A DNA stretch of 64,000 nucleotides from the NCBI RefSeq assembly GCF_028641065.1, contig NC_073382.1, forward strand, positions 68,758,001-68,822,000, written 5' to 3'. This stretch comes from Leucoraja erinacea (Eukaryota). The position numbers and the translations under genes are program-made. Numbering within the stretch: position 1 is the first letter of the stretch; every line of letters starts with the position of its first letter. The notes beneath the pieces were generated by a model. That model had not been told where the DNA came from, did not search any database, and saw only the letters and a program-made list of their open reading frames with translations. Shown here one piece after another: positions 8,355 through 64,000 of the stretch.

Positions 8355-8814
8355 AATGGTACACGAAATTGCTGGAGAAACTCAGCGGGTGCAGCAGCAT
8401 CTATGGAGCGAAAAAATAGGCGACGTTTCGGGCCGAAACCCTTCCTCAGACTGATGGGGAGTGGGAGGGGAGAAGGAAGGAAAAAGGGGAGGAGGAGCCC
8501 GAGGGCGGGGGGATGGGAGGAGACAGCTCGAGGGTTAAGGAAGGGGAGGAGACAGCAAGGGCTAGCAAAATTGGGAGAATTCAACATTCATGCCATCAGG
8601 ATGCAAGCTGCCCAGGCGGAATATGAGGTGCTGTTCCTCCAATTTCCGGTGTTGCTCACTCTGGCAATGGAGGAGACCCAGGACAGAGAGGTCGGATTGG
8701 GAATGGGATGGGGAGTTGAAGTGCTGAGCCACCGGGAGTTCAGGCAGGTTATTGCGGACTGAGCGGAGGTGTTCGGCGAAACGATCGCCCAACCGTCGCT
8801 TAGTCTCCCCGATT
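8355..8814 (-). mobile_element. Penelope-like element 3' fragment (GIY-YIG endonuclease C-terminus plus terminal repeat)
   Basis: ORF 8562-8792 (RFAEHLRSV...PVAQHFNSPSH...EEQHLIFRLGSLHPDGMNVEFS) is typical of PLE GIY-YIG domains; TSD AGTTAATC at 8347-8354 and 8815-8822. Confidence 0.88.
8422..8449 (-). ncRNA. Hammerhead ribozyme core (PLE-type, minimal)
   Basis: Minus strand reads CUGAGGA-A-GGG(UUUCGG)CCC-GAA-ACGU-C: CUGANGA box, stem II, GAAA, palindromic stem III and a GUC site. Stem I is only about 2 bp. Confidence 0.65.
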
Positions 8815-9375
8815 AGTTAATCGCTGGAATGATTTTAAAAGCAGCTTCTGAAGCCGCCAATGCCGACAACTGGGACGGATTTTATGGAGGACCAGGTAAA
8901 AGAAAGTAGTTTATTTTTATGTATAAAAGTGTTTCTTAAGATGTAGTTAATTCACATTTAAAGTTGCGAAACGATGATTTAGTCCCCCCCCCCCCCCCCC
9001 CCCCGAAAAACCGGCAGTGTATTTGCTGCAGATATGGGGGTATAAATTCACCGCAACCTCAACGTTCTAAATGGTCCCATTCCAGAAAATCCCACTCGCA
9101 AGCTGATTTAAATGGCCATTAATTTACAGGTATTAAACATTAAATTCCTTCCATTTGGCCTACAAACCCATGACAATGAGATTTAAAAATTATGTTATAT
9201 TCTGAATTCTTGTGTGAATGTTATTTGGACACTTAGGCTATTTAAAAATGTTAATCTATTCTTAAGAAATGGATAGATGTTTAGATCTAGTAATTGAATT
9301 TTGTAATTAGCTACAATTAGGTAACTAACTAATTATATGCTTTAATTTCAAGTCATCTAAGTAAGATTGTTTCAT

Positions 9376-9491
9376 GGGTTACACAGAAAAGCTGGAGAAA
9401 CTCAGCGGGTGCAGCAGCATCTATGGAGCGAAGGAAATAGGCAACGTTTCGGGCCGAAACCCTTCTTCATCTGCAGTTCCCTCTTAAACAC
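9376..9491. mobile_element. Short Penelope-derived insertion with an inverted end
   Basis: 14-bp TSD TAAGATTGTTTCAT at 9362-9375 and 9492-9505; the orientation switches at the 5' edge of the ribozyme core. Confidence 0.8.
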
Positions 9492-10029
9492 TAAGATTGT
9501 TTCATATTTGTTTCAGAATGCTTCAATCGATAATAACTGAAAATTTATTTCAGTTCTCTTCAATTTTAAGAAAGTTATCGGCCTTTAAATGTTCTCCATC
9601 ACAGCTTTTGTGTTAAGTCAATGAAAAAGCAATAGGGAACAAGATGCCAATTTCCGAGTATGAAAATGGCCATAACCTTTTTAATACTGAAGATTTGAAA
9701 GTGAATTAGGTGTCAAATTAAACTTCTTTTTATGCTTTATCTGATGGGATAAATTAAAAACTTGATTTTTAAAATCTCAAAATTTTGTAACATTGCTACA
9801 GTTAGCAATTATTTTGGATCGTTCTTGGCTTATGAAGAGATTTTTGAAATCTGTTCACATTTAATAAAAATCATTCATTTGTTTTTGATGGAAGAATATA
9901 TCCTTCTAAAACTTTGGCCAGAGATAATGGTGGAGTAACCTTCCTGGTTTTGCATACTGTCAGTAGCAGCCCCCTGCTGCTGCTTTGTAGGTGGTCCCCT
10001 CATTCTTACTCTTGAATTCTCGGTTCCTC

Positions 10030-10196
10030 ACTCCCCTCCATTGAGTCTGTCCAAGGCAAGCGATGTCTGCGAAGGGCGCTCGGCATCATCAAAGACTGCT
10101 CTCTCCCTCTCTCCCCCTCCTACCATCCGGACTGCGCTTACTCCTCCTACCCATCCGGGAGGCGCTACAGGCGGCTATTTTCAGGTTCAACACCTT

Positions 10197-10234
<38 letters not shown>

Positions 10235-10420
10235 ACCCTCCGGACACTCCTTCCACCAGGAAAAAAAAAAATAATTGCACTACTATGACTGTATGCACGT
10301 AAATATATTTATTTATTGCTCATATTCTATGTCGCTCTTCTAGGGAGATGCTAACTGCATTTCGTTGTCTCTGTACTATACACTGCACAATGACAATAAA
10401 GTTTGAATCTGAATCTGAAT
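10030..10420 (+). mobile_element. Rex1/Babar-type LINE 3' end
   Basis: Remnant of RCLRRA..IIKD and LLPSGRRYR motifs; ends TGACAATAAA + (TGAATC)n. Confidence 0.65.
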
Positions 10421-11033
10421 GGAGTACAGATGATTACAGAAAGTTCAGTTATAAAACATTATCTTTGTTCCACATCTCTCTTCTGCCCAGTTGGATGGTA
10501 TTGCACTCGCTTTATTCATTTCTATGGAACGTGGTCCTACCATGCGTGCTGAGGTTTCTTTTTTGAACTCCTCCAGTAAGGTTCATGCCTCTTCCACGGC
10601 ATCCAAGTAGCCTTAATCAAAGTCTCTATTGACCTTTCTTGTAAATGTGGTAAAGTCTGCATTTTTATTATCATTGACAGTTTACATCTATTGGTGACCA
10701 CCTTCTGCAGCACCTCTCCTCAGCTCAAGAGTCAAGAGTGTTTAATTGCCATATGAACCCAAAACAGAATGATATTCTTACTTGCAGCAGCATAACAGGC
10801 TGTACAGCTGAGTGGGTTTGTTCTTAGTTAGTGTTATTCCTATTGGTTTAATCAGAGTCAGAGAATTAGTATGATGACTTCTCTTCCTATCCCTGCATAT
10901 CTGAGGATTTATTCTTGGCCTCTTTTTACATTTGGGAACATAATGACATGGAAAAACATATGAGATGAGCAATTTGAAAAGATTCCTTCTACATGATTTG
11001 AAGCCCCTAATTTATGCATCAAAGGAACCTACC

Positions 11034-11167
11034 AGTTTGAAGAAGGTACTCGAACCGAAACGTCACCCATTCCTTCTCTCCAGAGATGCTGCCTGGCCCG
11101 TTGAGTTACTCCAGCATTTTGTGTCTATCTTCAGTGTAAACCAGCATCTGCAGTTCCTTCTGACACA
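11034..11167 (+). mobile_element. Penelope-derived short repeat with hammerhead core, sense to PIWIL4
   Basis: TTGAAGAAGGTACTCGAACCGAAACGTC at 11037-11064, followed by the shared PLE tail ...CCAGCATCTGCAGTTCCTTC. Confidence 0.75.
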
Positions 11168-11489: not shown

Positions 11490-11516
11490 GTGAGTACTTA
11501 CTACCAGATCGTCATC

Positions 11517-12435
11517 AAAGCTGGGGGACAGTGTTAGCTGTGAGGTGGATGCTAGGAGACTGCTAGGTGACTTGGATAGGCTGGGTGAGTGGGCAAATGT
11601 TTGGCAGATGCCGTATAATGTGGATAAATGTGAGGTTATCCATTTTGGTGGCAAAAACGGGAAAGCAGACTATTATCTAAATGGTGGCCGATTGGGAAAG
11701 GGGGGGATGCAGCGAGACCTGGGTGTCATGGTACACCAGTCATTGAAGGTAGGCATGCAGGTGCAGCAGGCAGTAAAGAAAGCGAATGGTATGTTAGCTT
11801 TCATTGCAAAAGGATTTGAATATAGGAGCAGGGAGGTTCTACTGCAGTTGTACAGGGTCTTGGTGAGACCACACCTGGAGTATTGCGTACAGTTTTGGTC
11901 TCCAAATCTGAGGAAGGACATTATTGCCATAGAGGGAGTGCAGAGACGGTTCACCAGACTGATTCCTGGGATGTCAGGACTGTCTTATGAAGAAAGACTG
12001 GATAGACTTGGTTTATACTCTCTAGAATTTAGGAGATTGAGAGGGGATCTTATAGAAACTTACAAAATTCTTAAGGGGTTGGACAGGCTAGATGCAGGAA
12101 GATTGTTCCCGATGTTAGGGAAGTCCAGGACAAGGGGTCACAGCTTAAGGATAAGGGGGAAATCCTTTAAAACCGAGATGAGAAGAACATTTTTCACACA
12201 GAGAGTGGTGAATCTCTGGAACTATCTGCCACAGAGGGTAGTTGAGGCCAGTTCATTGGCTATATTTAAGAGGGAGTTAGATGTGGCCCTTGTGGCTAAA
12301 GGGATCGGGGGGTATGGAGAGAAGGCAGGTACGGGATACTGAGTTGGATGATCAGCCATGATCATATTGAATGGCGGTGCAGGCTCGAAGGGCCGAATGG
12401 CCTACTCCTGCACCTAATTTCTATGTTTCTATGTT
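11517..12435 (+). mobile_element. Young 5'-truncated CR1 LINE (RT C-terminus)
   Basis: Uninterrupted 265-aa ORF 11545-12342 (WQMPYNVDKCEVIHFG, RPHLEYCVQFWSP, FFTQRVVNLWN); 3' tail (TTTCTATG)n. Confidence 0.95.
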
Positions 12436-14684: not shown

Positions 14685-14735
<51 letters not shown>

Positions 14736-15224: not shown

Positions 15225-16480
15225 AAACCTTTGTTGATAAACTCCTAGCTTGCAGAAACTCCCCCTATAGCTCAGGCTCTCAAGGCCTGTCAACATCCTT
15301 GTGAATCTTCTCTGCACTCTTTCCGTCTTAATAGTATCTTTTGTATCGGAAGGTGACCAAAGTTGAGCACAATACTTCAAGTGCAGCCACACCAATGTTT
15401 TATGTGCCTTGACTAGTGCCCTAATATATGTGATAGTCAAGTTACTGGTAAAGATTTTGAGGGATAAGATGTATATGATTTTGGATAGACAGGTTGATTA
15501 GGGATAATCAGCATGGGTTTGCATCAGGGAGATCATGTCTTTCGAATTCTGATTGAGTTTTTTGAAGAAGTAACCAAAATGTTTAATGAGGGCAAAGCTG
15601 TAAATGTTGTCTCTATGGACAACAGCAAGGCATTTGACAAGGTTCCGCATAGTAGGCTGCTCTGGAAGGTTATAACACAGGGGAGATTTGGCTTCAGGGA
15701 AGGATGCAGAGTGTTATGGTGGAAGGTTGCTTTTTGGATTGGAGGCCTGTGACTAGTGGTGTGCCTCGGGGATCGGTGTTGGAGCCATTGCTGTTTGTGC
15801 TTTATATCAACAATTTAGATGAGAATGTACAAGGCCTGTTTAGCAAGTTTGCAGATGACACTTAAGTGGGTGATGTCACAGAGAACGAAGATCGTTATCG
15901 AAAATTACAGGATCAGTTGAGCAAATGGATTGACGAATCGTTAATGGAGTTTAATGCAGATAAGTGCAAGATTTTGAAATCTGGAAGTCAAATCAGGGCA
16001 GAACCTTCACAGTGAATGGGAAATCCCAGAGATCTAGGAGAGCGGGTACACAGTTCCCTGAAAGTGTCATCACAGGTAGATAGGATGATCAAGAGGTTTT
16101 TGATACGAAGGTAGACAAAAGTGCTGGAGAGGCGGGTGAGGCAGCGTCTATGGAGCGAAGGAAATGGGTAATGTTTCGGGCCGAAACCCGTCTTCAGACT
16201 GTTCAATCAAGATATTGAGTATAGAAGTTGGGTTGTTATGTTGCATTTGTACAAGACATTGGTGAGCCTTCATTTGGAATATTGTTCAATTTTGTTCATC
16301 CTGCTATAGGAAGGATGTCAGTAAACTGGAAAGAGTACAGAGAAGATTTATGGGGATTTTGCCAGGACTTGAGGACCTGATCTGACATATGGGCCAAACG
16401 CGGGCAGGTGGGACTAGTCTAGACTCTGCATGGGAGTGGACTGGAGTGACTGTCTCCAATCTAATGGCTCTATGACTCTA
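15225..16480. mobile_element. CR1 LINE fragments (- at ~15225-15400, + at ~15410-16480) with a PLE short repeat nested at ~16104-16200
   Basis: KAFDKVPH, LIEFFEEVT and HLKYCAQLWSP motifs; hammerhead core on the minus strand at 16170-16197. Confidence 0.8.
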
Positions 16481-18266: not shown

Positions 18267-18284
18267 GTCATAAGCCTTCTTCAC

Positions 18285-25271: not shown

Positions 25272-26812
25272 ATAATAATAATAACTTTTATTTATGGGCG
25301 CCTTTCAAGAGTCTCAAGGACACCTTACAAAAATTTAGCAAGTAGAGGAAAAACATGTAACGGGAATTAAATAAATAGTAGAGACATGACTAGTTCACAA
25401 ATTAAAGACAGAATTCAATTCAAAACACAATATGAGGCAATTCAAGCACAGATGAAAAGGGAGGGGGACGTGGGGCTAAGGATAGGCAGAGGTGAAGAGA
25501 TGGGTCTTGAGGCGGGACTGGAAGATGGTGAGGGACACAGAATTGCGGATCAGTTGGGGGAGGGAGTTCCAGAGCCTGGGAGCTGCCCTGGAGAAGGCTC
25601 TGTCCCCAAAACTGCAGCGGTTGGACTTGTGGATGGAGAGGAGACCGGCTGATGTGGATCTGAGGGACCGTGAGGGTTGGTAGGGGGAGAGGAGGTCAGT
25701 GAGATATGGGGGGGGGGCAGATGGTGGAGGGCTTTGTAGGTGAGGACCAGGATTTTGTAGGTGATCCGGTGGGAGATGGGAAGCCAGTGAAGTTGTTTGG
25801 GGACTGGAGTGATGTGATGCCAGGATTTGGTGTGGGTGATGAGTCGGGCGGCTGCGTTCTAGACCAGTTGGAGTCAGTTGATGTAGGTGGAGCTGATGCC
25901 AAGGAGAAGTGAGTTGCAGTAGTCCAGTCGGGAGGAGATGAAGGCATGGATGAGTCTTTCAGCAGCGGGCAGTGTGAGAGAGGGTCTGAGTTTGGCGATG
26001 TTGCGGAGATGAAAGAAGGAGGTTTTAATGACATGGTGGATGTGAGGCTCAAGGGAGAGGGTGGAATCAAAGATCACGCCAAGGTTGCGGGCCTGGGGAG
26101 ATGGGGAGACAGTGGTGCCGTCGATGGTGAGAGTGGGGTTATTGATTTTGCTGAGTGTAGATTTGGAGCCTATGAGGAGGAATTCTGTTTTATCGCTGTT
26201 GAGTTTGAGGAAGTTATGTTGCATCCAGGTTTTTTATAGCTGACAAACGGGAGTTGATATGAGAGAGGGGGGGGGGGGGGGCTTGTGGGGGGATTTGGTG
26301 CCGAGGTAGATCTGGGTGTCATCGGCGTAACGGTGGAAGTCCAGGTTGAAGTGGCGGAGTATCTGACCAAGAGGGAGGATGTAGATGATGAAGAGGAGGG
26401 GGCCGAGTACGGAGCCTTGGGGATCGCCTTGAGTGACTGTGGCTGTAGCAGAGGTGTGGTTGTGGAGAGAGATGAAGTGGGATCTGTTGGAAAGGTAGGA
26501 ACAAAGGTCTTTGAGTCTGGTGAGCAGGATGTTATGGTTCACTGTATCAAAGGCTGCGCTCAGGTCGATGAGGATGTTGAGGGAACCAGTGTCAGCAGAG
26601 GTGAGGAGGTCGTCGAGGACTTTGAGGAGAGCTGTTTCTGTGCTACGGAGGGGGCGAAAGCCAGATGGGAGGGTTCAAGTAGGTTATACGCAAGGAGGTG
26701 GGAATGAAGTTGCGACGCAACGATACGCTCCAGGGTTTTTGAAAGAAAGGGGAGGTTTGAGATTGGGTGGTAGTTAATGAGAGAGGAGGGATCAAGACCA
26801 GGTTTCTTTAAG
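25272..26812 (-). mobile_element. L2 (LINE2-clade) 5'-truncated element
   Basis: PQGSVLGPLLF, HRYADDTQIY, NFLKLNSDKTEFLLIG and SRLDYCNSLL motifs; L2-type 3' stem-loop end with (TAT)n tail. Confidence 0.9.
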
Positions 26813-29729: not shown

Positions 29730-31345
29730 GCGCGGGTGCAACCAAGACGACATTGGGAAGAAGAAGCCCAGCCCAGCCCAGCGCCGAAAAAGCATTGCAG
29801 CGGCCAGTGGTGTACAGCCGATGTTGTTGGTGCTACTACCATCATCGATACGGGCCCGAAGCCTGAAGATGTCGGAGCCCCTGCTCGTACCAGGGAAATG
29901 TCTCGGCCAATCGTCCATAAAGGCGAAGGCGATCGGCCCGAACCAACGCCTCTACGTCCATGATCGCCATTCCGGCCACCGTTTCCTGGTGGACTCTGGT
30001 GCCCATTGCCAGCAGCCTGCCTCCGAGCGCCCAAGATACCCCGCATCGGTAAGGTAGGACCTGTCCTCTCAGCTGTTAACGGGAGCGACATTCTCACCTA
30101 CGGTATGCAGACCCTGGACTTAAATTTCGACTACCGCCCGTACAGGTGGAAGTTTTCCGTTGCTGACGTTGTCCAACCAATCCTGGGGCCGATTTCTGCG
30201 CACGTTCTCCCTGTTAGTCGATGTGCGAGGCGGACGCATGGTCCCTGTGTCGGACCTGTGCCCTGCCAAGCCGCGTAATTCGTCCACGCCCCTACAGCAA
30301 CTCGACGAGGTAGCTGAGATCCAGCAACCTTTCTCAGCCCTAGCTCAACGATTTCCCAGGGTTGCTCACGCCCAGGTTTGACGGGGCCGCGCCCTGTCAT
30401 GGCGTGGTCCACCACATTCTCACTGAGGGCCCACCGGTTCACGCCTGCACGCGCCGCCTCCCGCCCGATAATCTGCTCATCGCACGAGACGAGTTCCAGC
30501 TTATGTAGTACATGGGGATAGTCTGGCAGTCGGATAGCCCTTGGGCTTCCCCGCTGCACATGGTACCCAAAGCGTCCGGGGGTTGGAGACCTTGCGGTGA
30601 TTACAGGTGTCTAAACACGGTAACCACAGCAGATCGGTACCCAGTCCCGAACATCCAGGATTTCTCTGCTCATCTAGAAGGCGCTACCTTCTTCTCGTAT
30701 GTCGACCTTATTCGTGGGTAAAATCAAATAAGATGGCCATAAACCCCCCTTTCGGCCTTTTCGAATGGCTCAGAATGCCTTTTGGCCCGAAGAACGCAGC
30801 TCAGGCGTTCCAAAGGTTAATGGATCAGGTCGGTCGGGGTTTGCCGTTCATATTCATCCACCTCGATGATATTCTGGTGGCCATCAGCTCGCAGGCAGAG
30901 CATGTCGGGCATCTCCGCCTGCTCTTGGAACGGCTGCGTAAGCACGGGTTGGTGATCAACCCCGCGGTGCCAGTTCGGATTGCGTTCCATTTCATTCTTG
31001 GGTCACAGCATTACCTGCCACGGCGTGCAGCCGCTGCCCGAGAAGGACAACGCTATCCGTCGCTTCCCGAGGCCCCGATCTTTCAAGGGCCTGCAGGAGT
31101 TTATCGAGATGGTTAATTTCTACCACCGATTCGTCCCGTCAGCAGCCGCCATCATGCGGCCGTTATTCCAATGCCTGGCCGGTAAGCCTAAGAACCTGGT
31201 CTGGTTCAAGGAGGCAGAGAAGGCGTTTGTGGGGGCTAAGACTGCATTGGCCAATGCACTATGCTGGAACACCCTATGGCGTCAGCCCAAACAGCCCTCA
31301 CCGTGGACACTTCCGACGTCACGATAGGCGCCACCCTCGAGCAAC
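29730..31345 (+). mobile_element. Gypsy LTR retrotransposon internal fragment (CsRN1-like)
   Basis: Gag end CYYHHRYGPEA*RCRSPC, protease RFLVDSGA, RT WASPLHMVPK...WRPCGDYRCLN, YPVPNIQDF, RMPFG.KNAAQAFQRLMD, HLDDIL and FYHRFVP. Frameshifted; no LTRs seen. Confidence 0.88.
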
Positions 31346-34109: not shown

Positions 34110-34680
34110 TAGCCTGGGAAATAAAGAATGTGACCGTCCATCTTAACCATGCTGCTCATGATTTTATGAACCTCCACAAGGCTCAGCCTCATTCTCTCAT
34201 GGGAAAATAGTCCCTCCTTATTACAGTCCAGTCTATCCTTATTACCCAAGCCCTCCAGTTCCAGCAGCATCCATGTGAATCTGTTCAGCACCCTCCCTAG
34301 CTTAATCACATCCGTCCTAAAGAATGGTGACCACAACTGCACACAATATTCCAGGTGCGGTCTCACCATCGACTTGCAAACCTGTAAAATAATGTCCCGA
34401 CTTTAGTTGCCATTCGGAGATACAAGGAATTGCAGAAGCTGTATAACTCAGCAGATCAGGCACAGCTCTGCAGAACATGGATAGGTGATGTTTTGGATCA
34501 GGACCCATTTGCATACTTCAATCACACCTTATACCTGTGTCGCCACATTCAGGGAACTATGTGCTTTTCCCCCTGGGTCTCTCTTTTCTACGACACTCCC
34601 CAGGACCCCGTCATTTAGTGTGTATGTCTTGCCCGAGGTCATCTTCTCAAAATCCATCACTTCACACTCATATATAAATT
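34110..34680 (-). mobile_element. Old CR1 fragment
   Basis: ORF 34109-34369 begins VRPHLEYCVQLWSP. Confidence 0.75.
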
Positions 34681-39080: not shown

Positions 39081-39210
39081 TTCAAGTAGGAACTGCAGAT
39101 GCTGGAAAATCGAAGGTACACAAAAATGCTGGAGAAACTCAGAGGGTGCAGCAGCATCTATGGAGCGAAGGAAATAGGTAACGTTTCGGGCCGAAACCCT
39201 TCTTCAGACT
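39081..39210 (-). mobile_element. 130-bp Penelope-derived hammerhead-bearing insertion
   Basis: 13-bp TSD TAGG(G/T)ATTAATGG at 39068-39080 and 39211-39223 inside the CR1; core CTGAAGAAGGGTTTCGGCCCGAAACGTT at 39180-39207 (-). Confidence 0.88.
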
Positions 39211-39721
39211 TAGGTATTAATGGGTCCCTTTCAGAATGGCAGGCAGTGACTAGTGGGGTACCACAAGGCTCGGTGCTGGGGCCGCAGCTATTTACAATAT
39301 ACATTAATGATTTAGATGAAGGGATTCAAAGTAACATTAGCAAATTTGCAGATGACACAAAGCTGGGTGGCAGAGTGAAGTATGAGGCGGATGCTATGAG
39401 GATGCAGGGTGACTTGGACAGGTTAGATGAGTGGGCAGATGCATGGCAGATGCAGTTTAATGTGGATAAATGCGAGGTTATCCACTTTGGTGGCAAAAAC
39501 AGAAAGGCAGATTATTATCTGAATGGTGTCAAGTTGGGAAAAGGGGAAGTACAACGGGATGTGGGGGTCCTGTTCATCAGTCACTGAAAGTAAGCATGCA
39601 GGTACAGCAGGCAGTGAAGAAAGCAAATGGCATGTTGGTCTTTGTAACAAGAGGAGGTGAGTGTAGGAGTGAAGAGGCCCTTCTGCAGTTGTACAGGGGT
39701 CTAGTGAGACCACACCTGGAG

Positions 39722-42674: not shown

Positions 42675-42950
42675 AATCATCGAGTCATACAGCATGGAAA
42701 CAGGCCATTCAGCCCATCTTGTCAATGCCGACCAAGGCGCCCGCCCCAACTACATTAGTCCCACCTGCCCATGTTTAACCCATATCTCTCTAAACCTTAG
42801 ATACACAAAAAGCCAGAGTAACTCAGCGGGACAGGCAGCATCTCTGGATTGAAGGAATGGATGATGTTTCGGGTCGAGACCCTTCTTCAGACTGCACACA
42901 TTATCTCTAAACCTTTCCTATCCATGTACCTGTTCAAATGTCTTTTAAAC
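42675..42950 (-). mobile_element. CR1/SINE 3' end with a nested PLE hammerhead repeat (~42799-42900)
   Basis: Core CTGAAGAAGGGTCTCGACCCGAAACATC at 42863-42890 (-); flanking duplication TCTCTAAACCTT. Confidence 0.7.
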
Positions 42951-47778: not shown

Positions 47779-48544
47779 AAAATGTGACTAACTCCATTGC
47801 ATATTCAGGAAAAGGGAATAACCAACAGGAGATGAAATGTTATCATTTGCGTCATGCTATTATATGCAGAAACAATCAGTTTGTTCACCATCAATTGTTT
47901 GCAATTTGCTTGACAGCAAGATTAAGTCCAAGATAATTCCAACCCACCAAGTAGTGTGGAGTCCATAATTTGTACATGAAGTAGGTAAAGAAGACATTGA
48001 CCTAGATAGATTATATAGGCTGCTCACACAAAGGCAGAATTCCACTGAACGTTTCCATACACCAAAAATCATTGAAGAGAGAATTTCTGTGGAGATTAAG
48101 ATGAACACCAGGGCTGTAGTAGCGGTGACATGTTGTGTCATGGGCCAGATCAAGCTCAATTAGGCATCTAGCTTCCATTTACGTAGGAAGGAACTGCAGA
48201 TGTTATCCACTGGAACGTTGCCTATTTCCTTCGCTCCATAGATGCTGCTGCACCCACTAAGTTTCTCCAGCATTTTTGTGTAAACTCAGAACACTGTGGG
48301 TTACTGTGGACTTTTTTTTTAGGGTAATACAACATTTTCAGAAAAAAACTTACAAGAAATATTTCTCTCACACAGAAAATGCCCAATCAGGACTGATACC
48401 TCCACCAGTGGATAGCAATCATATGGGTAAGATGTTATACGATCAGATAACACCACAAGTAGTAATGGTGATACTTTATTATGATGGATGAATTCTCAGA
48501 AATGAATGCATGTTTGCACTAATTCTAAACCAAATGTTAGATTT

Positions 48545-49225
48545 TCCTTTAGAGATAGTGTGCAAACAGGCCCTTCGGCCCACCGGGTCTGTGTCGACCA
48601 ACGATCATCCGATACACTAGGGTCAATTTACAATTTTACCAAAGCCAATTAACCTACAAACCTGCATATCTTTGGAGTGTGGGAGGAAATCGAAGCACCC
48701 TGAGAAAACACACGTGGTCACGGGGAGAATGTACAAACTCCGTACAGACAGCACCCATACTCAGGATCAAAACCAGGTCTCTGGCGCTGTAATGCCCCTG
48801 TCCCACTTAGGAAACCTGAACGGAAACCTCAGGAGACTTTGTGCCCCACCCAAGGTTTCCGTGTGGTTCCTGGAGGTTTTTGTCAGTCTCCCTAATGGTC
48901 GAAAGTAGTTTCCGCTTCTTCTATGTTCCGGCGATTATTTCAAAAAATTCAAAACTGGCCGCGACTTAAAAATAGATTGCCATTTTAAAAAGCGGTAATT
49001 TTTTAGTCGAAGCCGGTTGCTATGCTAGTTGAAGGTGGTTGCCGGAGGTTGCAGGTAGTGGAAGGTCTTACCTTCTAAACCAAAGGTCTTACCTTCCACT
49101 ACCTGCAACCTCCAGCAACCACCTGCAACCTCCGGCAACCTCTGGCAACCACCACCGACAGGGACAGGGCATAAGTGGGACAGGGGCATAAGGCAGCAGC
49201 TCTACTGCTGCGCCACTGCGCTGCT
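48545..49225 (-). mobile_element. V-SINE interrupted by a PIF/Harbinger MITE (48793-49188)
   Basis: MITE termini TGCCCCTGTCCCACTTA and TAAGTGGGACAGGGGCA with TAA TSD; the SINE continues on both sides. Confidence 0.85.
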
Positions 49226-49801
49226 TTTAGAAACCATTATTTTGCCAAATCATTCAAAATTGATAATAAGATGATTATTTCAAAGAAAGCGTTTAAATGG
49301 CAGAATTTGTGGATGTATACCACACAATGAGAACAAAGTACTGCACTTTCATCTAATACACTGGAGGATATAATGTTAGGATTTTCTGGCACTTGTCTCT
49401 TATGTTATACACATGAAACCTATCAAAAAAAGAAAATATGGAGGTGAGACAGAGGGGGTTGGGAGCAAAGAGAATAAATGAAGAGACATTGATGGAGAAG
49501 ATGGGAAAAGTCAAAAGGAAAGGAAGAGGGAACAATGTTCTGTGAGTTTGAAATTTAATTGCAAAGCTAATAAATAGAATGTGATGTATTCTCAAACAAT
49601 TTCTTGCACTTTATCAACATCAGATGCTCCTAATTTTGAAATGTTCACATTGTCCTGCTTCTCATTTAGTGTGGTTGGTTTTGTATCGCCTGCTTTTTGT
49701 TTGTTGGTTTCATTTTTACTCAGACACAGGTAATTTAGTCATGAATAAGAGCAGCCAGAAATGTAACATCACAGACTAAAGTGAACAGGATTGTAAACGG
49801 T

Positions 49802-50031
49802 GAAGGTAGACACAAACTGCTGGAGCAACTCAGCGGGACAGGCAGCATCTCTGGAGGGATGGAATGGGTGACGTTTCGTGTCGAGACCCTTCTTCAGATT
49901 TATGTCAGGGGAGTGGGCGGTACAGAGACAATATGTAGTCGCAGGCAGTAAGACTGGTGGGAGGACTGGGAAGGGGGAGGGGATGGAGATAGAGAGAGGG
50001 AAAGAACGGGCTACTTGAAGTTAGAGAAGTC
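49802..50031 (-). mobile_element. Penelope-like element 3' end
   Basis: End of the ORF (DFSNFK*), a pyrimidine-rich UTR, and a hammerhead core at 49870-49897. Confidence 0.8.
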
Positions 50032-50735: not shown

Positions 50736-51591
50736 AGGATCCCACCTTTTTGTTCAATGCTTCCAGCTTCTCAATCATAATCCTAGTAATTTTATGACCA
50801 TTTTAATCACTCTACTTCATCCACAATATACTCTGGTATTCCATCTACAGACCACATAGTGAGACTAATTCCAGGATTGTGTTTGTGCCTTATGTGTCAT
50901 TTGACATATTGTGCATGTATCTGTGATCTTCCACTCTGGTCTTGTGGCCAATGTGGGAATCAAAGCGTTTCAGTGCATCGCTCAGCACATGTTTGTGCAC
51001 CTTGGAATGTGTTATTCAGTCAGCAGCATTTGCTCACAGACATCTCCATCTCATGACATAAGGTTTCAGGCCGACCAAAATCCATCTACTGCAGGTTGAT
51101 GATCTTCCTGCAGTAGTTGATGTCTGTCAGTCTCAGGGCTTTGTGTTTTCTTGACGAATGATCTTGAAACGCCCAACATCATCCCAAATGCTTCAACTCC
51201 ACCTTTAATGGAGTTAAATTCTGTGGGGATGTTACACCCCCCCCCCCCCCCCAAGGCTTTAAGAACATCCCCAATCACAATATTTTTCCCTACTTGACAG
51301 AGATCAGAACAGCCAATCTGTTTTGGTGTCAGACAGGCGAGCAACGTGGCCTGCTCAAAGGAACCAACTTAGCGCCAATTAATGCCATACGTTTAGGCCA
51401 ATTGTGTCGCTTTATTTTGAGGCTATAAAAGGAGAATTATTGGCACAACCAAAAAAGTAAGAATTTTAAAATGACTTATCCGAATGTGAAGCTAAGTGGA
51501 ACAGGGTTGCTTCCTTTCCCAAGAAGTCACTCCCAAGCCTATGTTTTGCTTTAGAGTCAAAGAGCATGAAAACAGACCCTTTAGTCCATCA

Positions 51592-51680
51592 GAAACCAAA
51601 TGCTGGAGTAACTCAGCGGGACAGGCAGCATCTTTGGAGAGGATGGGTGACGTTTCAGGTTGAGACCCTCCTTCCTGCAG
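51592..51680 (-). mobile_element. Short PLE-derived insertion
   Basis: 13-bp TSD CTTTAG(T/C)CCATCA at 51579-51591 and 51681-51693. Confidence 0.75.
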
Positions 51681-51958: not shown

Positions 51959-52178
51959 TAACAAAGAGCTGCAGAATTATCACCATTACTACCAAAGAGC
52001 CCTTTTATAACAAAGTGCTGGTAGTAACTCAGCGGGTCAGGCAGCATCTCTGGAGAAAATGGACGGGTGACGTTTTGGGTCGGGACCCTTCTTCAGACTT
52101 GACCCAAAGCATCACCCATCCTTTTTCTCCAGCGATGCTGCCCGACCCACTGAGTTACTCCGGGATTTTATGTCCATT
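51959..52178. mobile_element. Fold-back (inverted dimer) PLE-derived insertion
   Basis: Inverted arms ~52023-52081 and ~52101-52159; perfect 12-bp TSD CATGGAATAGAG at 51947-51958 and 52179-52190. Confidence 0.85.
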
Positions 52179-53290
52179 CATGGAATAGAGGCTTACTCCA
52201 GAGACTAGATTACGGAATCCTGGAGCATAGCAGTGTTAGGACGGTGGTTTACACATGAAGTGTTGGACTGAAACTATATTTTTCCTTTGGGGTGAACATA
52301 CTATTCTGAAGGACAGGATTGTCATCACAGTCAATAAGCAATTTTCTATTATCATCAGCCGAACAGATTTGCCTCACAACCCACTCAACCTGTAAGCACT
52401 AAACCTGAATTTCAGAGGCATAAAATATCACTGCTAGTTGATGTATTCAGTGCTGCAACAGGAGAGGAACTCAAGGCAATTTTTAAATATTTTTTTTGTG
52501 GAAGCTTGCATCAACTGTGATTTCTGTATTTTAATGTACACTAAATATATTTTAGGTTGTCCAGAGGTCATCAAAGTCACAATGGAAATGCAAGTCTTGC
52601 TTTATATCTCCTCTCCTAGTCCCATCCTTAATAGTTTATCTTCTATTGTAGCCACTGTATTTGTCCTGGTCTTTGCCACTCTCCTGGTCATCAACCTCCC
52701 TCCCATTTACTTCCTCGGTTTTGGTGATGGAACACCCAGAAGTGAGTGATCTTTACTGATGAACTCCCTGCACTAACCCAATACCCATGCAACGTATTGT
52801 TCCTGGATACATTATCAGAAATGCTTCTGGTCAGTCCACCTGCTCCAGCACAGACATCTGTAACTGTACAATCCACACTAACCATTCTTTCCCACATGTT
52901 TTATGACATCACTAGTATTAGGAGATTGGTAATGATCCCGTGAGACACATTTCCCATCAGAAATACTTGTGGGTTATAAAAGGAGCAACATAAGCATAAC
53001 CGAGAATGAGAATTACAGAATTTCCGATTCAAGGCAATATGAAAGCATTAGTGAATACAAATGATATTATGGAGCTAGAAATAGATGCACTTTGTTTTGA
53101 AGTGGCTATAGATTTGAAAGATTCCCTCTTGGGCAGCAATGGAAATGATGGTTAGATAATAGAGTATGTGCCATTTAAAAATAAAACTTTCCTTTGTTTA
53201 AATAGAAGAACATTTCTCCTGTGCAACCCTGGATGCTAAACAAACAACATAAATCAGTGAGAGGAATAAGCAAGATGATGTTGAGCTAAA

Positions 53291-56318: not shown

Positions 56319-56860
56319 TGCCCCTGTCCCACTTAGGCAATATTTTAGGCAACTGCAGGCGACTAGGCAGTCAACACGTGGTCGCCGGGGTGTGGCCTGT
56401 ATGGTCTCCTCAATCGCGCAAAGATTCGTACCTTTTTTCTGGTCGCCGCTGGATTTTGAAGTGTTCAAAACTTTTCGGCGACAGTTAGCGCCCGTGGGCT
56501 TGACACCAACGATCGTAGCCTGACGAAGCGCTGTCGCCAGGATGACGTAGGTTGTCGTCGATGTTGAGCGGTGAATTCCATTATCAACTACTTACGTCAA
56601 CCTACGTCAACCAGCGACAGGTACCGGTGACTGAATTGACATACCTTGTCGTAGCTTGTCACTGGTGGACGTAGGTTGTCGTAGGTGTGGTCGTAGGTGG
56701 ACGTCCTATGGGTCGCTGGTAGCTTGCCGTACATAGCTTGACGTCGACTAGGAGGTAGGTTGTTGTAGACATTGTCGTAAGGGGGTCCAGTCGCTGGTTT
56801 TTCAGCAAATGCTATGACTATGACAGTCACTGAAAAAATTGCTTAAGTGGGACAGGCTCA
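56319..56860. mobile_element. PIF/Harbinger-type MITE with internal GTCGTAGGT-like repeats
   Basis: Termini TGCCCCTGTCCCACTTA and TAAGTGGGACAGGCTCA; TAA/TTA flanks. Confidence 0.75.
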
Positions 56861-56945
56861 TTAGGGAGACACAAAATGGTGGAGTAACTCAACGGGTGAG
56901 GCAGCATCTCCAGAGAGAAGGTCACAGGCTCCTCTGCTGACAAGA

Positions 56946-59900
56946 TAATAGACAATAAACAATAGACAATAGGTGCAGCAGTAGGTCATTCGGCCCTTCG
57001 AGCCAGCACCGCCATTCAATGTGATCATGGCTGATCATCCCCAATCAGTACCCCGTTCCTGCCTTCTCCCCATATCCCCTGACTCCGCTATTTTTAAGAG
57101 CCCTATCTAGCTCTCTCTTGAAGGCATCCAGAGAACCTGCCTCCACCTGCCTCCACTGAGGCAGAGAATTCTACAGACTCACCACTCTCTGTGAGAAAAA
57201 GTGTTTCCTCGTCTCAGTTCTAAATGGCTTACTCCTTATTCTCAAACTGTGGCCCCAGTTCTGGACTCCCCCAACATCGGGAACATGTTTCCTGCCTGTA
57301 GCATGTCCAAACCCTTAACAATCTTATATGTTTAAATGAGATTCCCTCTCATCCTTCTAAACTCCAGAGTGTACAAGCCCAGCCGCTCCATTCTCTCAGC
57401 ATTTGACAGTCCCGCCATCCCGGGAATTAACCTTGTAAACCTATGGTGCACTCCCTCATTAGCAAGAATGTCCTTCCTCAAATTAGAGGACCAAATACTG
57501 CAGGTGTGGTCTCACTAGGGCTCTGTACAACTGTACACTAGGACCTCTTTGCTCCAATATTTGATTCCTTTTATTATAAAGGACAATATGACATTCGCTT
57601 TCTTCACTGCCTGCTGTACCTGCATGCTTACTTTCATAGACTGATGAACAAGGACCCCCCAGATCCCATTGTACTTCCCCTTTTCCCAACTTGATGCCAT
57701 TTAGATAGTAATCTGCCTTCCTGTTTTTGCTACCAAAGTGGATAACCTCACATTTATCCGCATTAAGCTTCATCTGCCATGCATCTTCTCACTCCCCCAA
57801 CCTGTCCAAGTCACCCTGCATTCTCATAGCATCCTCCTCAAAGTTCACACTGCCACCCAGCTTTGTGTCATCTGCAAATTTGCTAATGTTACTTTGAATC
57901 CCTTCATCCAAATTATTGATGTATACTGTAAATAGCTGCGGACCCAGCACCGAGCCTTGCGGTACCCCACTAGTCACTGCCTGCCATTCTGAAAGGGACC
58001 CGTTAATCCTTACTCTTTGTTTCCTGTCTGCCAACCACTTCTCTATCCATGTCAGCACCCTACCCCCAATACCATGTGCCCTAATTTTGCCCACTGAACT
58101 CCTATGTGGGACCTTATCAAATGCTTTCTGAAAGGCCAGGTACACTACATCCACTGGCTCTCCCTTGTCCATTTTCCTAGTTACATTTTCAAAAAATTCC
58201 AGAAGGATTTCCCCTTTGTAAATCCATGCTGACTCGGACCGATCCTGTTACTGCTATCCAAATGTTCGGCTATCTCATCTTTTATAATTGACTCCAGCAT
58301 CTTCCCCACCACCGATGTCAGGCTAACTGGTCTATAATTCCCTGTTTTCTCTCTCCCGCCTTTCTTAAAAAGTGGGATAACATTAGCTACCCTCCAATCC
58401 CCAGGAACCGATCCTGAGTCCATAGAACATTGGAAAATTATCACCAATGCATCCACGATTTCTAGAGCCACATCCTTAAGTACCCTGGGATGCAGACCAT
58501 CAGGCCCTGGGGATTTATCAGCCTTCAGTCCCATCAGTCTATCCAACACCATTTCCTGCCTAATGTGGATTTCCTTCAGTTCCTCTGACACCCCAGATCC
58601 TCTGGCCACTACTATATCGGGAAGATTGTTTGTGTCCTCATTACTGAATACAGATCCAAAGTACCTGTTCAACTCATCTGCCATTTCCTTGTTCCCCATA
58701 ATAAATTAACCTATTTCATTCTTCAAGGGTCCAACTTTGGTCTTAACTAATTGTTTCCTCTTCATATACCTAAAGAAGCTTTTACTATCCTGCTTTATAT
58801 TCTTGGCTAGCTTACCTTCGTACCTCATCTTTTCTCCCCATATTGTCTTTTTAGTTATCTTCTGTTGTACTTTAAACATTGCCGAATACTCTTGCTTCCC
58901 GCTCATCTTTGCTGCTTTGTACTTCTTCGCTTTAATTTTTATACTGTCCCTGACGTCCTTTGTCAGCCACGGCAACCCCTACTCCCCTTGGAATCTTTCT
59001 TCCTCCTCGGAATGAACTGATCCTGCACCTTCTATATTATTCCTAGAAACACCTGCCATTTTTGTTCCACTGTCATCCCTGCTAGTGTATCTTTCCAGTC
59101 AACTTTGGCCAGCTCCTCCCTCATGGCCCCATAGTCCCCTTTATTCAACTGCAACACTGACACCTCCGATCACTCTTCTCCATCTCAAATTGTAGATTAA
59201 ACCTGACCATGTTATGGTCACTGCCTCCTAATGGCTCATTAACCTCGAGGTCCTTTATCAAATCCGGTTCATTACATAATACTAAGTCCAGAATTGCCTT
59301 CTCCCTGGTAGGCTCCAATACAAGCTGTTCAAAGAATCCATCATGAAGGCACTCTATAAAGTCCCTTTCCTGGGGTCCAGTACCAACCTGATTTTCCCAG
59401 TCTACCTGCATGTTGAAATCTCCTATAACAACCACAGCATTACTTTTACTACATGCCAATTTTAACTCCTGATTCAACTAGTGCCGTATGTCCAGGCTAC
59501 TGTTTGGGGGCCTGTAGATTAGTCCCATTAGGGTCTTTTTACCCTTACAATTCCTTAGTTCTATCCATACTGACTCCACATCTCCTGTTTCAATGTCACC
59601 CCTTGCAAGGGACTGAATTTCATTCCTCACCAACAGGGCAACCCCAACCCCTCTGCCCACCTATCTGTCTTTTCCATAGGAGGTTTACCCTTGAATATTC
59701 AGTTCCCAGCCCTGGCCCTCTTGCAGCCATGTCTCAGTAATTCCCACATCATACTTGCCAGTTTCTAACTGAGCCTCAAGCTCATCCACTTTATTCCTTA
59801 TACTTCGCGCATTCATATGAAGCACTTTGACCTCTGTATTCATTTCCCCCCTCGCATCGCTCGAAATTGGCCCTGACCTCACTGTCGAACTTTCCTTCCC

Positions 59901-61172: not shown

Positions 61173-61174
61173 GG

Positions 61175-61920
61175 CATTTTAGTCTTGATGAAAGCATATG
61201 CAGTGGTGTGGGTCTTTGATAGTATTAGTTGCCTTTTGAGGCAGCACCTCTTGTAGATCCCTTCGATGCAGGGAAGGTCAATATCCAAAATAAACCGGAC
61301 ACCGTCTATAACTTTCTGCAACTTCCATCGTTCCTGATCATTTGATTTACCGAATCAGGCTTTCTTGCAACCACTAAACTTGCTCTCTAATGCACACCTG
61401 TAAAAGTTCAATAGAATATTCAGCAACATACTGAATCTCATCTATTTTCTAAAGAGGTAGAGGTGCCGATGAGCATTCTTTGTGAATGCTCCAATGAGCT
61501 GGGCTTTGGGAAAAATTCTTCAGAGATTCAGACCCCAGGGACATTAAGCTGCCGATTCTCCACTCCTATCCTGTTGATGAAGACAGGTTCATGGATCCTC
61601 AGATTTCCCTTCTTTAAGTCAAAAATCAGCTCCTTGGTCTTGCTAGTGTTGAGAGCAAGATTGTTCCTCTGGCACCATTCAATCTTCTTTCAGTGCTCTG
61701 ACACATCATTATCCATTATTCGCTCAACAATTAATGCGTTCTGCGAATTTAAAGATGACATTGGATCTGTATCCAGCTGCACCATCATGGGTATAGCAGG
61801 GGATTGGGCATACGTCCTTGAGTTGATGGTCATCGAGGAAAAATCGTTGTCAATTCGTACCGACTGTTGTCTGCTGATGAGGAAGTCAAGGATCTAATTG
61901 CATAGGGATGAGCTGAGACC
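61175..61920 (-). mobile_element. Rex1/Babar LINE RT C-terminal fragment
   Basis: Reverse-strand remnants KTKELIFD and LPCIEGIYKRCCLKR. Confidence 0.65.
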
Positions 61921-61956
61921 CATTTACCAGAGTCTGATGACCATGTAAGCAAAATT

Positions 61957-62136
61957 AAACACAAAATGCTGGAGTAACTCAGTGGGACGGGCAGCATCTC
62001 TGGAGATAAGCTCGGAACTCTTCTTCATACAGGTCTCGACCCGAAACGTTACCCATTCCTTCTCCTCAGAGATATTGCCTGTCCTGCTGAGGTATTCCAG
62101 CATTTTGTGTCTATCTTCGGTGTAAACCAGCATCTG
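61957..62136. mobile_element. Inverted-dimer PLE-derived repeat
   Basis: ACACAAAATGCTGGAGTAACTCAG... followed by its reverse complement ...CTGAGGTATTCCAGCATTTTGTGT. Confidence 0.75.
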
Positions 62137-62315
62137 TACTAAACAATAATGTTGGTTACTCTGACTCCACCATGGCAGTCAAGGAAAGTCAGCACTGCTC
62201 ACCCTTAAATAAATGAAAACATAAGCTTGCACAATGTTTTCACCCAAACATTTCAAAGGCAGAAAATAATATTGGACACATAATTTAATGTTTTGAAAAT
62301 ATTACAATTTTGTTC

Positions 62316-62447
62316 TAAATTCTGAAGGAAGTTTTTGACCCGAAACATTGCCCATTTCCTTCGCTCCATAGATACTGCCGCACCCGCTGAGTTTCTCCAG
62401 CATTTTTGTCTACCTTCGATTTTCCAGCATCTGCAGTTCCTTCTTAA
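62316..62447 (+). mobile_element. PLE-derived ~130-bp insertion
   Basis: 12-bp TSD ACAATTTTGTTC at 62304-62315 and 62448-62459; starts a few nt before a degenerate CTGAAG core. Confidence 0.82.
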
Positions 62448-63169
62448 ACAATTTTGTTCCTGCTTACTTTCTGTAGGGTAGCATTTTCCGAGAGCAACGA
62501 AACACAATCTGGACAGAACATAGGTAAAATTGAAAGAATATTAAATAGAATCATATATTCTAAATAAATGCAAGAAGCACTGCATAAGCACATCAAAAAG
62601 AGTTGCTGTCTATAGAAAGCAACCCAGAGAAAGTGAAAGATGGGAATATTGTGATGAGACATAGATATAATAATAGTTAACAATATGATCATCAAAGCCA
62701 CCTATTATAAAGAACCAGAAATTCACCTGATTTGATAATGAAATCAATTCTTCCTAGTAATAGTGGAGTTTCCCCTTTAGCAGTGAAATTGTACGCCTTA
62801 TAACATTTATTTCTTAAACAAAACAGTCCTTCAAAGAGACCATATTGAAATCGTTGTCATTTACAAAGTGCTGGAGGAAGACCTCAGCGATTCTTTATCA
62901 GTCTAAGATAAGAATGGCCCCGGGACGTGGTCTGTCCTTTACGCTCCAGGGATGCCGCCTGACCCGCTGAGTTCCCCCAGCACCTTGTTTTATTTTATCC
63001 AAGCTTCCAGCATCTGCAGCCTCTGGTGTCGTCGTTGTAATTTACAGTGGGGGCGAGAGACTTGTGGAAACCCGCGTTAGTTCAATCTGTAGAAACGTCG
63101 CCCATTCCCTCTCTCCAGAGATGCTGCTGCCTGTCCCGCTGATTTACTCCAGCATTTTGTGTCTATCTT

Positions 63170-64000
63170 ACAACAGGTGAAGCCTTGCAGTCATCAGATG
63201 GCCCGGGACTGCAGCGATTGCACAGTGGCGCTCGCTAGGACCCAGAGGGCCGGGGCTGTGCTGCAGGAGGTGAAGCGCTGCCATTCCTCTCATTCCGCTG
63301 TGAATGGGGCTGATTGTTGTCGGCTGGCGAAGCTCTCCCTCCGGCTGAAGCCTTTCCCCCCCCCGCCCGCAGCAGCCGCTCGCCTCGGCTCCACTCGGTT
63401 CGTTGCTCTTTCTCTCTCGGTTGGCAATGGGTGGGGGCAGTGGCGTTGCAAGGATCGCTTCCAAATTGGCTGGTTCCTGCAAACTTTGGAGCAACTTTGC
63501 AAGAGGCAGCTGGAGGCGGGCACTTCGGCGAACAAAGTTATCTGCGGGCTGGACTCGAAGGTTTGAGGAAGGTTTGGGGTGGGGGGGGAGCTTTGCCTCG
63601 ATTGAGCGGGTACCGCTGTTGTCTTGGGGGCAACTGATGCTGGGGTGTGGAGGGGAGGGGACGGGGTTGAGCCGAGCTGCAGCCCGCCTGCGAGAGGGGG
63701 AGTCCCGGGAGCGGCTTGGCGCAGCTCGGCTCGGCTGGCGGCGGATGAATGGGGAAGCGGGCGTTGGGCTCTTGCTCCTCACCTGCCGGCCTCTCGGACC
63801 CGGCTCCTCACTGACTCTGTCCCCTGGCTGGCGAGGAGGGTTGCTCCCGCCCGGCCCCAGCCACTGACTGAGTACCGAGCGGGCCCGCTTTAAGGTACAA
63901 CAAAGGCGCAATTTCGCCGAGTTGGGGCTTCCACTTGTTGTAGATGTGGGACAGAGTGTGGAGCAGTCCGTTGCCCCACGTTTAGTTTCTCTGTACGGCG
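63170..64000. promoter_or_regulatory. CpG island / probable promoter and first exon of the next gene (possibly AMOTL1)
   Basis: Abrupt shift to GC- and CpG-rich non-repeat sequence; tandem CATTCC-3nt-CATTCC (TEAD) at 63282-63296. The AMOTL1 identity is inferred only from mammalian gene order. Confidence 0.55.

Follow-up and report, generated by a model that had tools for sequence, protein, structure and literature searches.

The 64-kb stretch of Leucoraja erinacea DNA analysed here (the window, on contig NC_073382.1) carries many dispersed repeats of about 130 bases with a hammerhead ribozyme motif. The question was whether these repeats form a discrete, non-autonomous, ribozyme-bearing family (retrozyme- or SINE-like), as the first-pass annotation had proposed, or are by-products of a larger element. 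A profile search found 23 copies in the window and none in reversed control DNA. About 20 copies had been claimed; every listed place was recovered, and 34420–34517 and two partner arms of inverted pairs were added. Extrapolation to the whole genome gave about 870,000 copies, consistent with the very high copy number proposed. Several subfamilies of Neptune-type Penelope-like elements (PLEs) have this repeat as their terminal repeat (pLTR), and in full-length copies it also serves as the 5′ UTR; the suspected PLE origin was thereby confirmed. It contains a minimal type I hammerhead and, downstream of it, two presumed reverse transcription (RT) start points with a spacing of about 35 nt, which make the known PLE "tail". 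Positions in the repeat are counted from the A that lies three bases upstream of the CUGA box (+1). The short repeats represent stubs of the PLE end repeat, and in most of them the ribozyme is broken. The family itself is of an already known kind, since solo and inverted hammerhead-bearing pLTRs were known before.

The parent element was characterized from full-length copies. In L306, which spans 3,882 nt, the order was repeat, ORF start, RT, endonuclease, UTR, and repeat. The repeats of full-length elements lie about 3.9 kb apart, one of them upstream of the ORF start, and a conserved ATG stands about 25 nt past the tail. A 727-aa frame in L021 comprised RT and then a C-terminal GIY-YIG endonuclease; its Pfam matches (RVT_1, E 2e-5; GIY-YIG, E 5e-4) were both below the curated cut-offs. 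A C-x4-C-x2-C linker was present upstream of the endonuclease in L021–L024 and L026–L027, and one Cys was changed in L025. A zinc-finger-like CX2-5CxxC linker between RT and endonuclease is described as a trait of Neptune and Nematis (PMC8557442). As the vertebrate PLEs reported in one survey were Neptune and Poseidon only (bioRxiv 10.64898/2026.07.22.740005), the elements were tentatively assigned to Neptune rather than Nematis. The pLTRs were arranged as direct partial tandems or inverted, with an optional 30–40-bp tail. A pyrimidine tract ending in (C/T)AG preceded the core directly in every subfamily.

Three window copies had been described as bearing GIY-YIG sequence. The description was correct for 8355–8814 (minus strand, 8-bp target-site duplication, TSD), a 5′-truncated young (family A) Neptune-type PLE with the GIY-YIG C-terminus at 8813–8565, a pyrimidine-rich 3′ UTR, and a terminal repeat with the short 3′ end. 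Its protein part was 97.6% identical to that of L021. An intact minimal type I hammerhead core lies inside it at 8422–8449 (minus), with CUGA-N-GA, a bulged A, a 4-bp stem II, GAAA, the palindrome ACGU, and GUC as the predicted cleavage triplet. The second, 35272–35642 (plus), was an older endonuclease fragment with 3′ UTR from a family-B-type element, and its 3′ end was displaced. A UTR end and a repeat without CUGA box at about 36060–36180 (plus) probably belong to this element, judging by UTR continuity across about 400 bp of other repeats. The third, 49801–50031 (minus), was a family-B copy holding only the last ORF codons, UTR, and repeat; its core nucleotides were intact and three of four stem II pairs were kept.

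The other window copies were shorter or decayed. Four started at +1. The best was 39082–39210 (minus), a family-A copy reaching the tail with an intact core and a 13-bp TSD (one mismatch) adjoining +1. The family-B copy at 42800–42893 (minus) had an intact core and a 12–14-bp TSD with about 8–10 nt of filler; that at 11034–11166 (plus) reached the tail with C3 changed to U and no convincing TSD. The copy at 16106–16200 (minus) kept its core nucleotides and had the short 3′ end and an unconvincing TSD. A family-A copy at 62321–62447 (plus) ran from +3 to the tail with A9 changed and a 12-bp TSD. Decayed short copies were located at 31407–31504 (plus, from about +7), 34420–34517 (minus), and 51590–51674 (minus, from about +6). 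At 9376–9491, a copy from +5 (9469–9376, minus, C3 lost) was joined head-to-head to a short inverted tail piece (9470–9491) within one 14-bp TSD. Head-to-head pairs were also found at 52010–52187 (two short copies in a single 12-bp TSD) and 61945–62138 (one tail arm and one short arm), and at 48187–48283 an inverted tail piece (48187–48202) was joined to a copy from about +26. The remaining copies were 35–219 (minus; family B, UTR and intact core, 3′ part gone), 2804–2922 (minus; tail, no CUGA box), 36635–36758 (plus; strongly diverged, E 5e-4, extra sequence past the CUGA box), 56860–56921 (minus; from about +39, ribozyme part absent), 62900–63030 (plus; old, diverged, with tail), and 63092–63172 (plus; from about +24, no CUGA box). 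TSDs of 12–14 bp had been claimed at seven copies. Five were verified (9470, 39210 with one mismatch, 42893, 52098, and 62316), and 11034 and 16200 had only 6–7-bp matches. The TSDs at 9470 and 52098 surround inverted two-part units, not single copies. PLE mobilization with TSDs was thus supported.

The integrity of the hammerhead was examined in the window and in 488 random genomic copies (499 matches minus 11 near locus edges). The motif CUGA(A/G)GA-A-stem II-GAAACGU(C/U) was as claimed, except that stem II has 4 bp rather than 3. Judged from sequence, the master-like copies have the anatomy of a minimal hammerhead, as had been proposed: CUGANGA, GAAA, NUH, a bulged base, and a G-C-closed stem II. 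All 11 core nucleotides were kept in only 6 of the 23 window copies (95, 8452, 16200, 39210, 42893, and 49899), and four of the nine cores listed before were damaged (9443 and 11037 lacked C3, 52069 lacked G12, and 62322 lacked A9). In the genomic sample, 88 of 488 copies (about 18%) had an intact core, so counting such motifs overstates functional ribozymes. Stem II of 22 rows pre-selected for intact cores was 97.7% paired (U-A 11, U-G 11), with no two-sided change and covariation not above shuffles. An Rfam search with E values up to 5 matched no hammerhead family. When five copies were folded by minimum energy, no full hammerhead resulted (z-scores −0.4 to 1.3); a 52–60/110–118 helix recurred in three family-A tail-bearing copies. 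The hammerhead is probably a passenger in the stubs and selected only in master elements.

The 5′ ends were then considered. Mapping breakpoints in the 488 copies by TSDs alone gave much noise over long distances (control 5% at 11 bp, 0.7% within 150 nt), and inverted pairs dominated the outcome. An unbiased sample of 70 young copies, drawn from the initial 8 Mb of a single contig, was therefore used; it includes the duplicated pair L254/L255 and the inverted-unit arms L274/L275. In this sample, 38 of 70 copies began at −2 to +10, a 13-nt zone around the CUGA edge. The density of ends was 0.072 per nt there, against 0.0043 downstream and 0.0014 upstream (p < 1e-21), an excess of 17-fold or greater. 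The non-random boundary noted earlier was therefore real: a uniform distribution of 5′ ends was decisively rejected. Ordinary random 5′ truncation was ruled out by this clustering and by that of 33,004 family-A cores genome-wide, of which 3,055 started at +4, 2,743 at +3, 5,538 at +2, 3,547 at +1, and, by difference, 4,260 at 0/−1, while 13,861 reached −2. Starts were most frequent at +2 rather than at the initiator-like A (+1), in a peak about 13 nt wide. The boundary is 30 nt upstream of the predicted cleavage site, and hence not at it. Among copies with an ORF start, 7 of 30 began at the same edge. The edge was read past in 17 of 55 3′ repeats and in 15 of 22 ORF-start repeats (p = 0.004). 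The base upstream was consistent with a cap-derived extra G in 42 of 100 copies at +1 and likewise at +2 (p = 0.09 and 0.025, trinucleotide background), a weak indication of such a G. The boundary sequence can also be read as a 3′ splice acceptor. TSDs often adjoined the junction directly, without a captured exon. Upstream sequence shared between copies was PLE UTR, an inverted partner, or unrelated repeats; short copies adjoined unique flanks.

The 3′ ends of the 70 young copies fell into two groups, 39 at +96 to +100 and 28 around +132 (+126 to +137), with 3 between. The conserved tail of about 100 nt noted before is thus present in part of the copies, and the full tail is not universal. Of the 488 genomic copies, 152 were arms of inverted pairs of variable build, with the tail at one end only for 97 of these arms, and 15 lay in direct tandems, 3 of them with an intact core; at least 11 copies in the "solo" class of this census are linked to endonuclease sequence. 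Intact cores on the same strand lay within 900 bp of each other in a single pair only. Four of the seven ORF-start copies beginning at the edge were repeat–partial ORF–repeat units inside one 9–14-bp direct repeat, and in three of these four both repeats started at nearly the same, element-specific place. L306 and L308, complete elements starting at the edge, had no TSD. Full-length L319 started exactly at the predicted cleavage site and had a 12-bp TSD.

Four raw RNA runs and one contig set, the runs possibly from other species, contained no pile-up of starts or ends, and none of read ends at the predicted cleavage site; ORF depth was near zero. Loose RNA ends at +1 and +2 numbered 209 and 194 reads in one comparison and 647 and 419 in another, opposite to the genomic ratio.

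Taken together, the short copies are stubs of the terminal repeat of autonomous Neptune-type PLEs, likely produced when RT begins at an internal site of the repeat and continues to the 5′ terminus of the RNA, where it runs off. The 3′ ends of the copies would correspond to the pair of internal RT start sites described for the anole element, and the 5′ boundary would be a cluster of transcription starts. The element RNA would be copied uncut, and the run-off cDNA would be joined to the target through short microhomology; it might otherwise meet a second cDNA, giving inverted pairs, or jump to another RNA end. It is likely that the fixed 5′ edge corresponds to the beginning of the element RNA and not to a ribozyme cut. 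An anole PLE is reported to initiate RT internally and on an uncleaved template (PMC11167929), and Penelope to have an internal promoter in its pLTR (PMC2377424). Counting against the transcription-start reading are the lack of an RNA start pile-up, the mode at +2 with a peak of about 13 nt, the weak cap-G signal, the splice-acceptor-like sequence, the absence of TSDs from L306 and L308, and the start of L319 at the cleavage site. In the D. virilis element, transcription is reported to start about 120 nt upstream of the ribozyme, contrary to the boundary of the run-off model (PMC2377424, PMC4209133). An extended scheme is possible but rather doubtful: RNA that is terminally redundant from the ribozyme edge, on which RT begun in the 5′ repeat makes a short cDNA resembling retroviral strong-stop DNA. 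Integration of this cDNA would account for hundreds of thousands of stubs; its jump to the 3′ repeat or to the end of another RNA would regenerate the pseudo-LTR. The four TSD-flanked repeat–partial ORF–repeat copies fit run-off followed by integration or a jump, and are the whole of the evidence for jumping.

A by-product origin would also hold if the RNA were longer and the boundary marked a point where RT stalls or the RNA is processed, for example if a protein or a structure blocked RT where the pyrimidine tract ends, or if the AG at +1/+2 served as splice acceptor. This version is unlikely, although the tract and (C/T)AG occur before the core in every subfamily, the peak is broad with its mode at +2, loose RNA ends favor +1 over +2, and a D. 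virilis intron is reported to end at the 5′ end of helix I (PMC4209133). Unequal pass rates of 5′ and 3′ repeats are not expected from a purely sequence-driven stall. TSDs adjoining the junction without an exon, and paired repeats of one element beginning at matching, element-specific places, also argue against it, and RT at +2 would presumably have unwound the hammerhead already. A self-amplifying SINE-like family using PLE protein was judged still less probable. One repeat would contain both promoter and RT start signal, short copies outnumber long ones (39 at −8 to +10 against 16 longer, of 70), rotifer pLTRs reportedly sufficed for mobilization in trans (PMC3846280), and the core of short copies was slightly less mutated than the flank (3/361 against 25/1053, p = 0.08). 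Against this, no variant private to short copies occurred at four tabulated sites in 70 copies, long copies linked to UTR and endonuclease fall in both main clusters, the ends are uneven, and inverted-pair arms of variable build account for 152 of 488 copies. No tRNA-, 5S-, or 7SL-derived promoter head common to the copies was found.

A retrozyme, defined by hammerhead cleavage and circularization and spread via circular RNA, is very improbable. In its favor are conservation of the core among subfamilies, the start of L319 precisely at the cleavage site, and the reported derivation of vertebrate retrozymes from pLTRs (bioRxiv 10.64898/2026.07.22.740005). However, only 1 of 64 copies started within +29 to +35, and a purine directly preceded +32 in 549 copies genome-wide, against 14,883 starting at +1 to +4; genomic ends do not lie at +32, as they would in a unit defined by cleavage. 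Copies contain sequence from both sides of the cut with no circular permutation, read ends did not accumulate at the site in the RNA runs (possibly of other species), and the copies are not organized as tandem units that each have a complete hammerhead: 15 of 488 copies were tandem, 3 intact, with one intact same-strand pair within 900 bp. The discrete ribozyme-bearing unit proposed at first was likewise not upheld. The core is intact in only 88 of 488 copies. Full-length elements have the same edge (7 of 30), the cleavage site is 30 nt further downstream, and the variants of short copies are also those of long ones. With a start at +4 to +10, many copies lack stem I or C3.

The repeats were compared with known systems. 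The metazoan PLE pLTRs of Cervera and de la Peña 2014 (PMC4209133) are described with the same type I minimal core, bulged base before stem II, G10.1-C11.1, palindromic 15.2–16.2, and weak helix I, with thousands of dispersed single motifs ascribed to truncated PLEs, and with opposite-strand pairs 100–700 bp apart. That study gives about 4,000–9,000 motifs for coelacanth and Xenopus, against about 157,000 intact cores implied in the skate (88/488 of about 870,000), by different search methods; unlike in the skate repeats, a fixed 5′ boundary is not described in its available text. EN+ PLE insertions (Craig et al. 2021, PMC8557442; Arkhipova et al. 2013, PMC3846280) are reported with the same head-to-head arms, inverted 5′-truncated pLTR, one-sided 30–40-bp tail, TSDs, 5′-joint microhomology, solo pLTRs, and CX2-5CxxC linker, whereas in the skate ORF-less forms are most copies and share a nucleotide-level 5′ boundary. 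Animal non-LTR retrozymes (bioRxiv 10.64898/2026.07.22.740005) are likewise described as pLTR-derived and non-coding, with a type I hammerhead and dispersed monomers included; they are defined there as tandems in which two or more consecutive units have complete hammerheads, whereas skate copies are scattered, usually occur singly or inverted, and are for the most part broken. As presumed for the skate element, D. virilis Penelope (Schostak et al. 2008, PMC2377424) has an internal promoter in the pLTR; its start is placed upstream of the intron preceding the ribozyme, whereas the presumed skate start is at the ribozyme edge, and regeneration of its pLTR is left unexplained in the available text. 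A fixed 5′ boundary or strong-stop-like product in PLEs was not found in the literature searched, which covered sources other than subscription papers and repeat databases. The Anolis carolinensis Poseidon PAc (Frangieh et al. 2024, PMC11167929) is likewise reported to have two internal RT starts that make an optional tail, an uncleaved RNA template, and no RNA ends at the cleavage site. PAc belongs to the Poseidon clade, and its ORF begins within stem II, whereas the skate ATG is past the tail. The available text of that paper makes no mention of a 5′ run-off product, and its supplementary coverage plots could show one. The skate repeats are a very large natural record of PLE reverse transcription, and the run-off-and-jump model, with start and stop points mapped in the skate, is directly testable in the 2024 in vitro system (PMC11167929).

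The ~130-base repeat was searched for in the window and in 1.2 Mb of the genome (120 evenly spaced 10-kb loci) with a profile built from the window copies. The profile matched 23 copies in the window; the genome sample contained 476, and reversed DNA, as control, gave 0 matches. Extrapolation of the 120-locus sample to 2.19 Gb gave ~870,000 copies, so the density of the repeat in the window is ordinary. A copy was present at every place listed in the first-pass annotation. The hammerhead cores reported there were often incomplete, with all 11 core nucleotides kept in only 6 of the 23 window copies, and the TSDs claimed for seven short copies held up in five and failed in two. The repeats are stubs of hammerhead pLTRs from Neptune-type Penelope-like elements (PLEs); solo and inverted forms occur, and the kind is already known. 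Added here are a genome-wide histogram of starts at nucleotide level, the contrast in pass rates and the copies with paired repeats. Two older, strongly diverged window copies (36635-36758 and 62900-63030), one with additional sequence 3' of the CUGA box, may belong to older PLE families with another stem II.

The reading frame at window 8813-8565 encoded a GIY-YIG C-terminus; a genome search at first look listed 97,825 candidates, and scores were computed for 150 of them. Longer copies encoded RT, a C-x4-C-x2-C linker and an endonuclease, which is the Neptune/Nematis layout set out in PMC8557442. Full-length copies carried the same repeat at their 5' end, with a conserved ATG ~25 nt past the tail; this makes the repeat the core of the pLTR, acting as 5' UTR and 3' end alike. 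In one such copy, L306, the repeat-to-repeat span was 3,882 nt. Multiple subfamilies were found, each with its specific pyrimidine-rich UTR, and the repeat was common to all. An AAG/GT resembling a splice donor overlapped the presumed start codon and was kept between families A and B (L110 2620-2610, minus strand; L113 512-525); no spliced reads were seen there at low read depth.

The repeat was numbered from the A three bases 5' of the CUGA box (+1). The 5' ends were mapped in 70 young family-A copies, taken in genome order and picked solely by 3' pattern, and 38 of them lay at -2 to +10. The density of ends per nt was 0.072 in this interval vs 0.0043 at +11 to +61 and 0.0014 at -3 to -200. 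Exact counts over 33,004 family-A cores genome-wide, which include point mutations (~1-2.5% per site) and chance flank matches, agreed with this sample: apparent starts numbered 3,055 at +4, 2,743 at +3, 5,538 at +2, 3,547 at +1 and 4,260 at 0/-1, and 13,861 cores reached -2. The non-random boundary proposed at first pass was thus borne out. Microhomology of 1-4 nt, or a short filler of a few bases, was seen at most 5' joints. The cleavage site (+31/+32) was not favoured, with starts within +29 to +35 in 1 of 64 copies; a purine stood immediately 5' of +32 in 549 copies genome-wide, a figure that includes mutants and omits pyrimidine-preceded cases. The full-length copy L319 (G000:C12, ~56,128,390, minus strand), which has a TSD of 12 bp and 6 filler nt, began exactly at the cleavage site and is possibly a rare product of cleaved RNA. 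The full-length copies L306 and L316 had both their 3' flank and private variants in common, with unlike 5' ends (a +2 start vs a long pLTR), and may be alleles, duplicates or a later insertion.

The 3' ends of the 70 copies fell at +96-100 (39 copies) and +126-137 (28 copies). These two ends represent the optional PLE tail, shown in PMC11167929 to be the interval between two internal RT start sites. Head-to-head pairs, a miniature of the canonical inverted PLE structure, supplied 152 of 488 random-sample copies as arms; a tail end was paired with a short end in 97 of these arms, and TSDs of 11-16 bp often enclosed the pairs. A conserved 8-9-bp helix (repeat 52-60/110-118; for example window 39159-39093, minus strand) surrounded the first RT start site, formed in tail-bearing RNA only, and is a candidate protein-binding signal.

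The boundary had been taken as the edge of an independent ribozyme-bearing unit, which is probably wrong. Variants at +31, +85, +103 and +127 were common to short and long family-A copies, long copies were present in both main clusters, and direct tandems amounted to 15 of 488, all of which argues against such a family; some re-amplification of short copies is conceivable. The definition of a retrozyme in a 2026 preprint (bioRxiv 10.64898/2026.07.22.740005), by tandem units with complete hammerheads, does not fit the copies. The preferred reading is that the boundary probably marks a transcription start. The boundary sequence matched the consensus of the human initiator, BBCA+1BW (PMC5287114), at 5-6 of 6 places, and the Penelope promoter is reported as internal to the pLTR (PMC2377424). 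The shortness of the motif, which is also readable as a splice acceptor, the modal start at +2 and the weak cap-G signal count against this reading. RNA reads also speak against it: they showed no pile-up of starts, with loose ends at +1/+2 only, as expected of passively transcribed copies.

The boundary was passed by 17 of 55 3' repeats vs 15 of 22 ORF-start repeats (p = 0.004). Thirty ORF-start copies comprised 7 boundary starts, 15 longer pLTRs and 8 downstream starts; full sequence was examined for 15, made up of every boundary starter, 7 copies with a long pLTR, and L319. Four boundary starters (L307, L309, L311 and L312; G000 C23, C26, C8 and C32) consisted of a 5' repeat and 594-2,351 nt of element including partial ORF, fused directly to a second short repeat and enclosed by direct repeats of 14, 9, 9 and 14 bp (≤1 mismatch), that of L309 lying 17 nt away from the start. 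No TSD was found in two complete boundary starters, which also counts against a transcription start. Within-element 5' starts matched in three of the four: both repeats started at -3 with an identical G in L309, read +1/+2 and then an identical 3-nt gap in L311, and reached -6 to -10 in L307; in L312 the two starts differed. ORF-start sequence was joined to a repeat at +1 in two of the 488 random copies as well. The four copies are a possible record of RT template jumping. A heterogeneous physical RNA 5' end would be copied twice and an end-to-end jump would occur, which the paired repeats fit. End-to-end jumps of this kind are known for R2 RT.

The predicted hammerhead had a 4-bp stem II with a U-A/U-G exchange; its ACGU was palindromic, and stem I had 2+2 bp flanking an internal loop. 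This anatomy fits the minimal type I form as presented in PMC4209133. Stem pairing, in pre-selected rows, was not above shuffles. Within mixed clusters, core vs tail variation for short and for long copies was 1.0% vs 5.3% and 0.8% vs 5.6%, and 2.9% vs 7.6% and 3.3% vs 8.2%, a comparison biased by ascertainment towards good cores; the lower core variation in short and long copies alike points to selection in master elements. Within family A alone, the difference did not reach significance for short (p = 0.08) or long copies (p = 1). The core was intact in only 88 of 488 copies, and intact same-strand neighbours were seldom near enough for cis dimers, with a single pair within <900 bp.

Other retroelements were represented by broken reading frames at window 6414-7211, 25476-26674, 30601-31472, 11494-12342, 37843-39587 and 57483-59477; we take them to be BEL/Pao-like, L2-like, Gypsy-like and CR1-like, and the copy at 39082-39210 lay within a presumably CR1-like frame. 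A near-perfect 88-bp palindrome with sub-repeats on its flanks (window 49035-49122) gave weak Rfam microRNA matches, under gathering scores, and probably belongs to another repeat.
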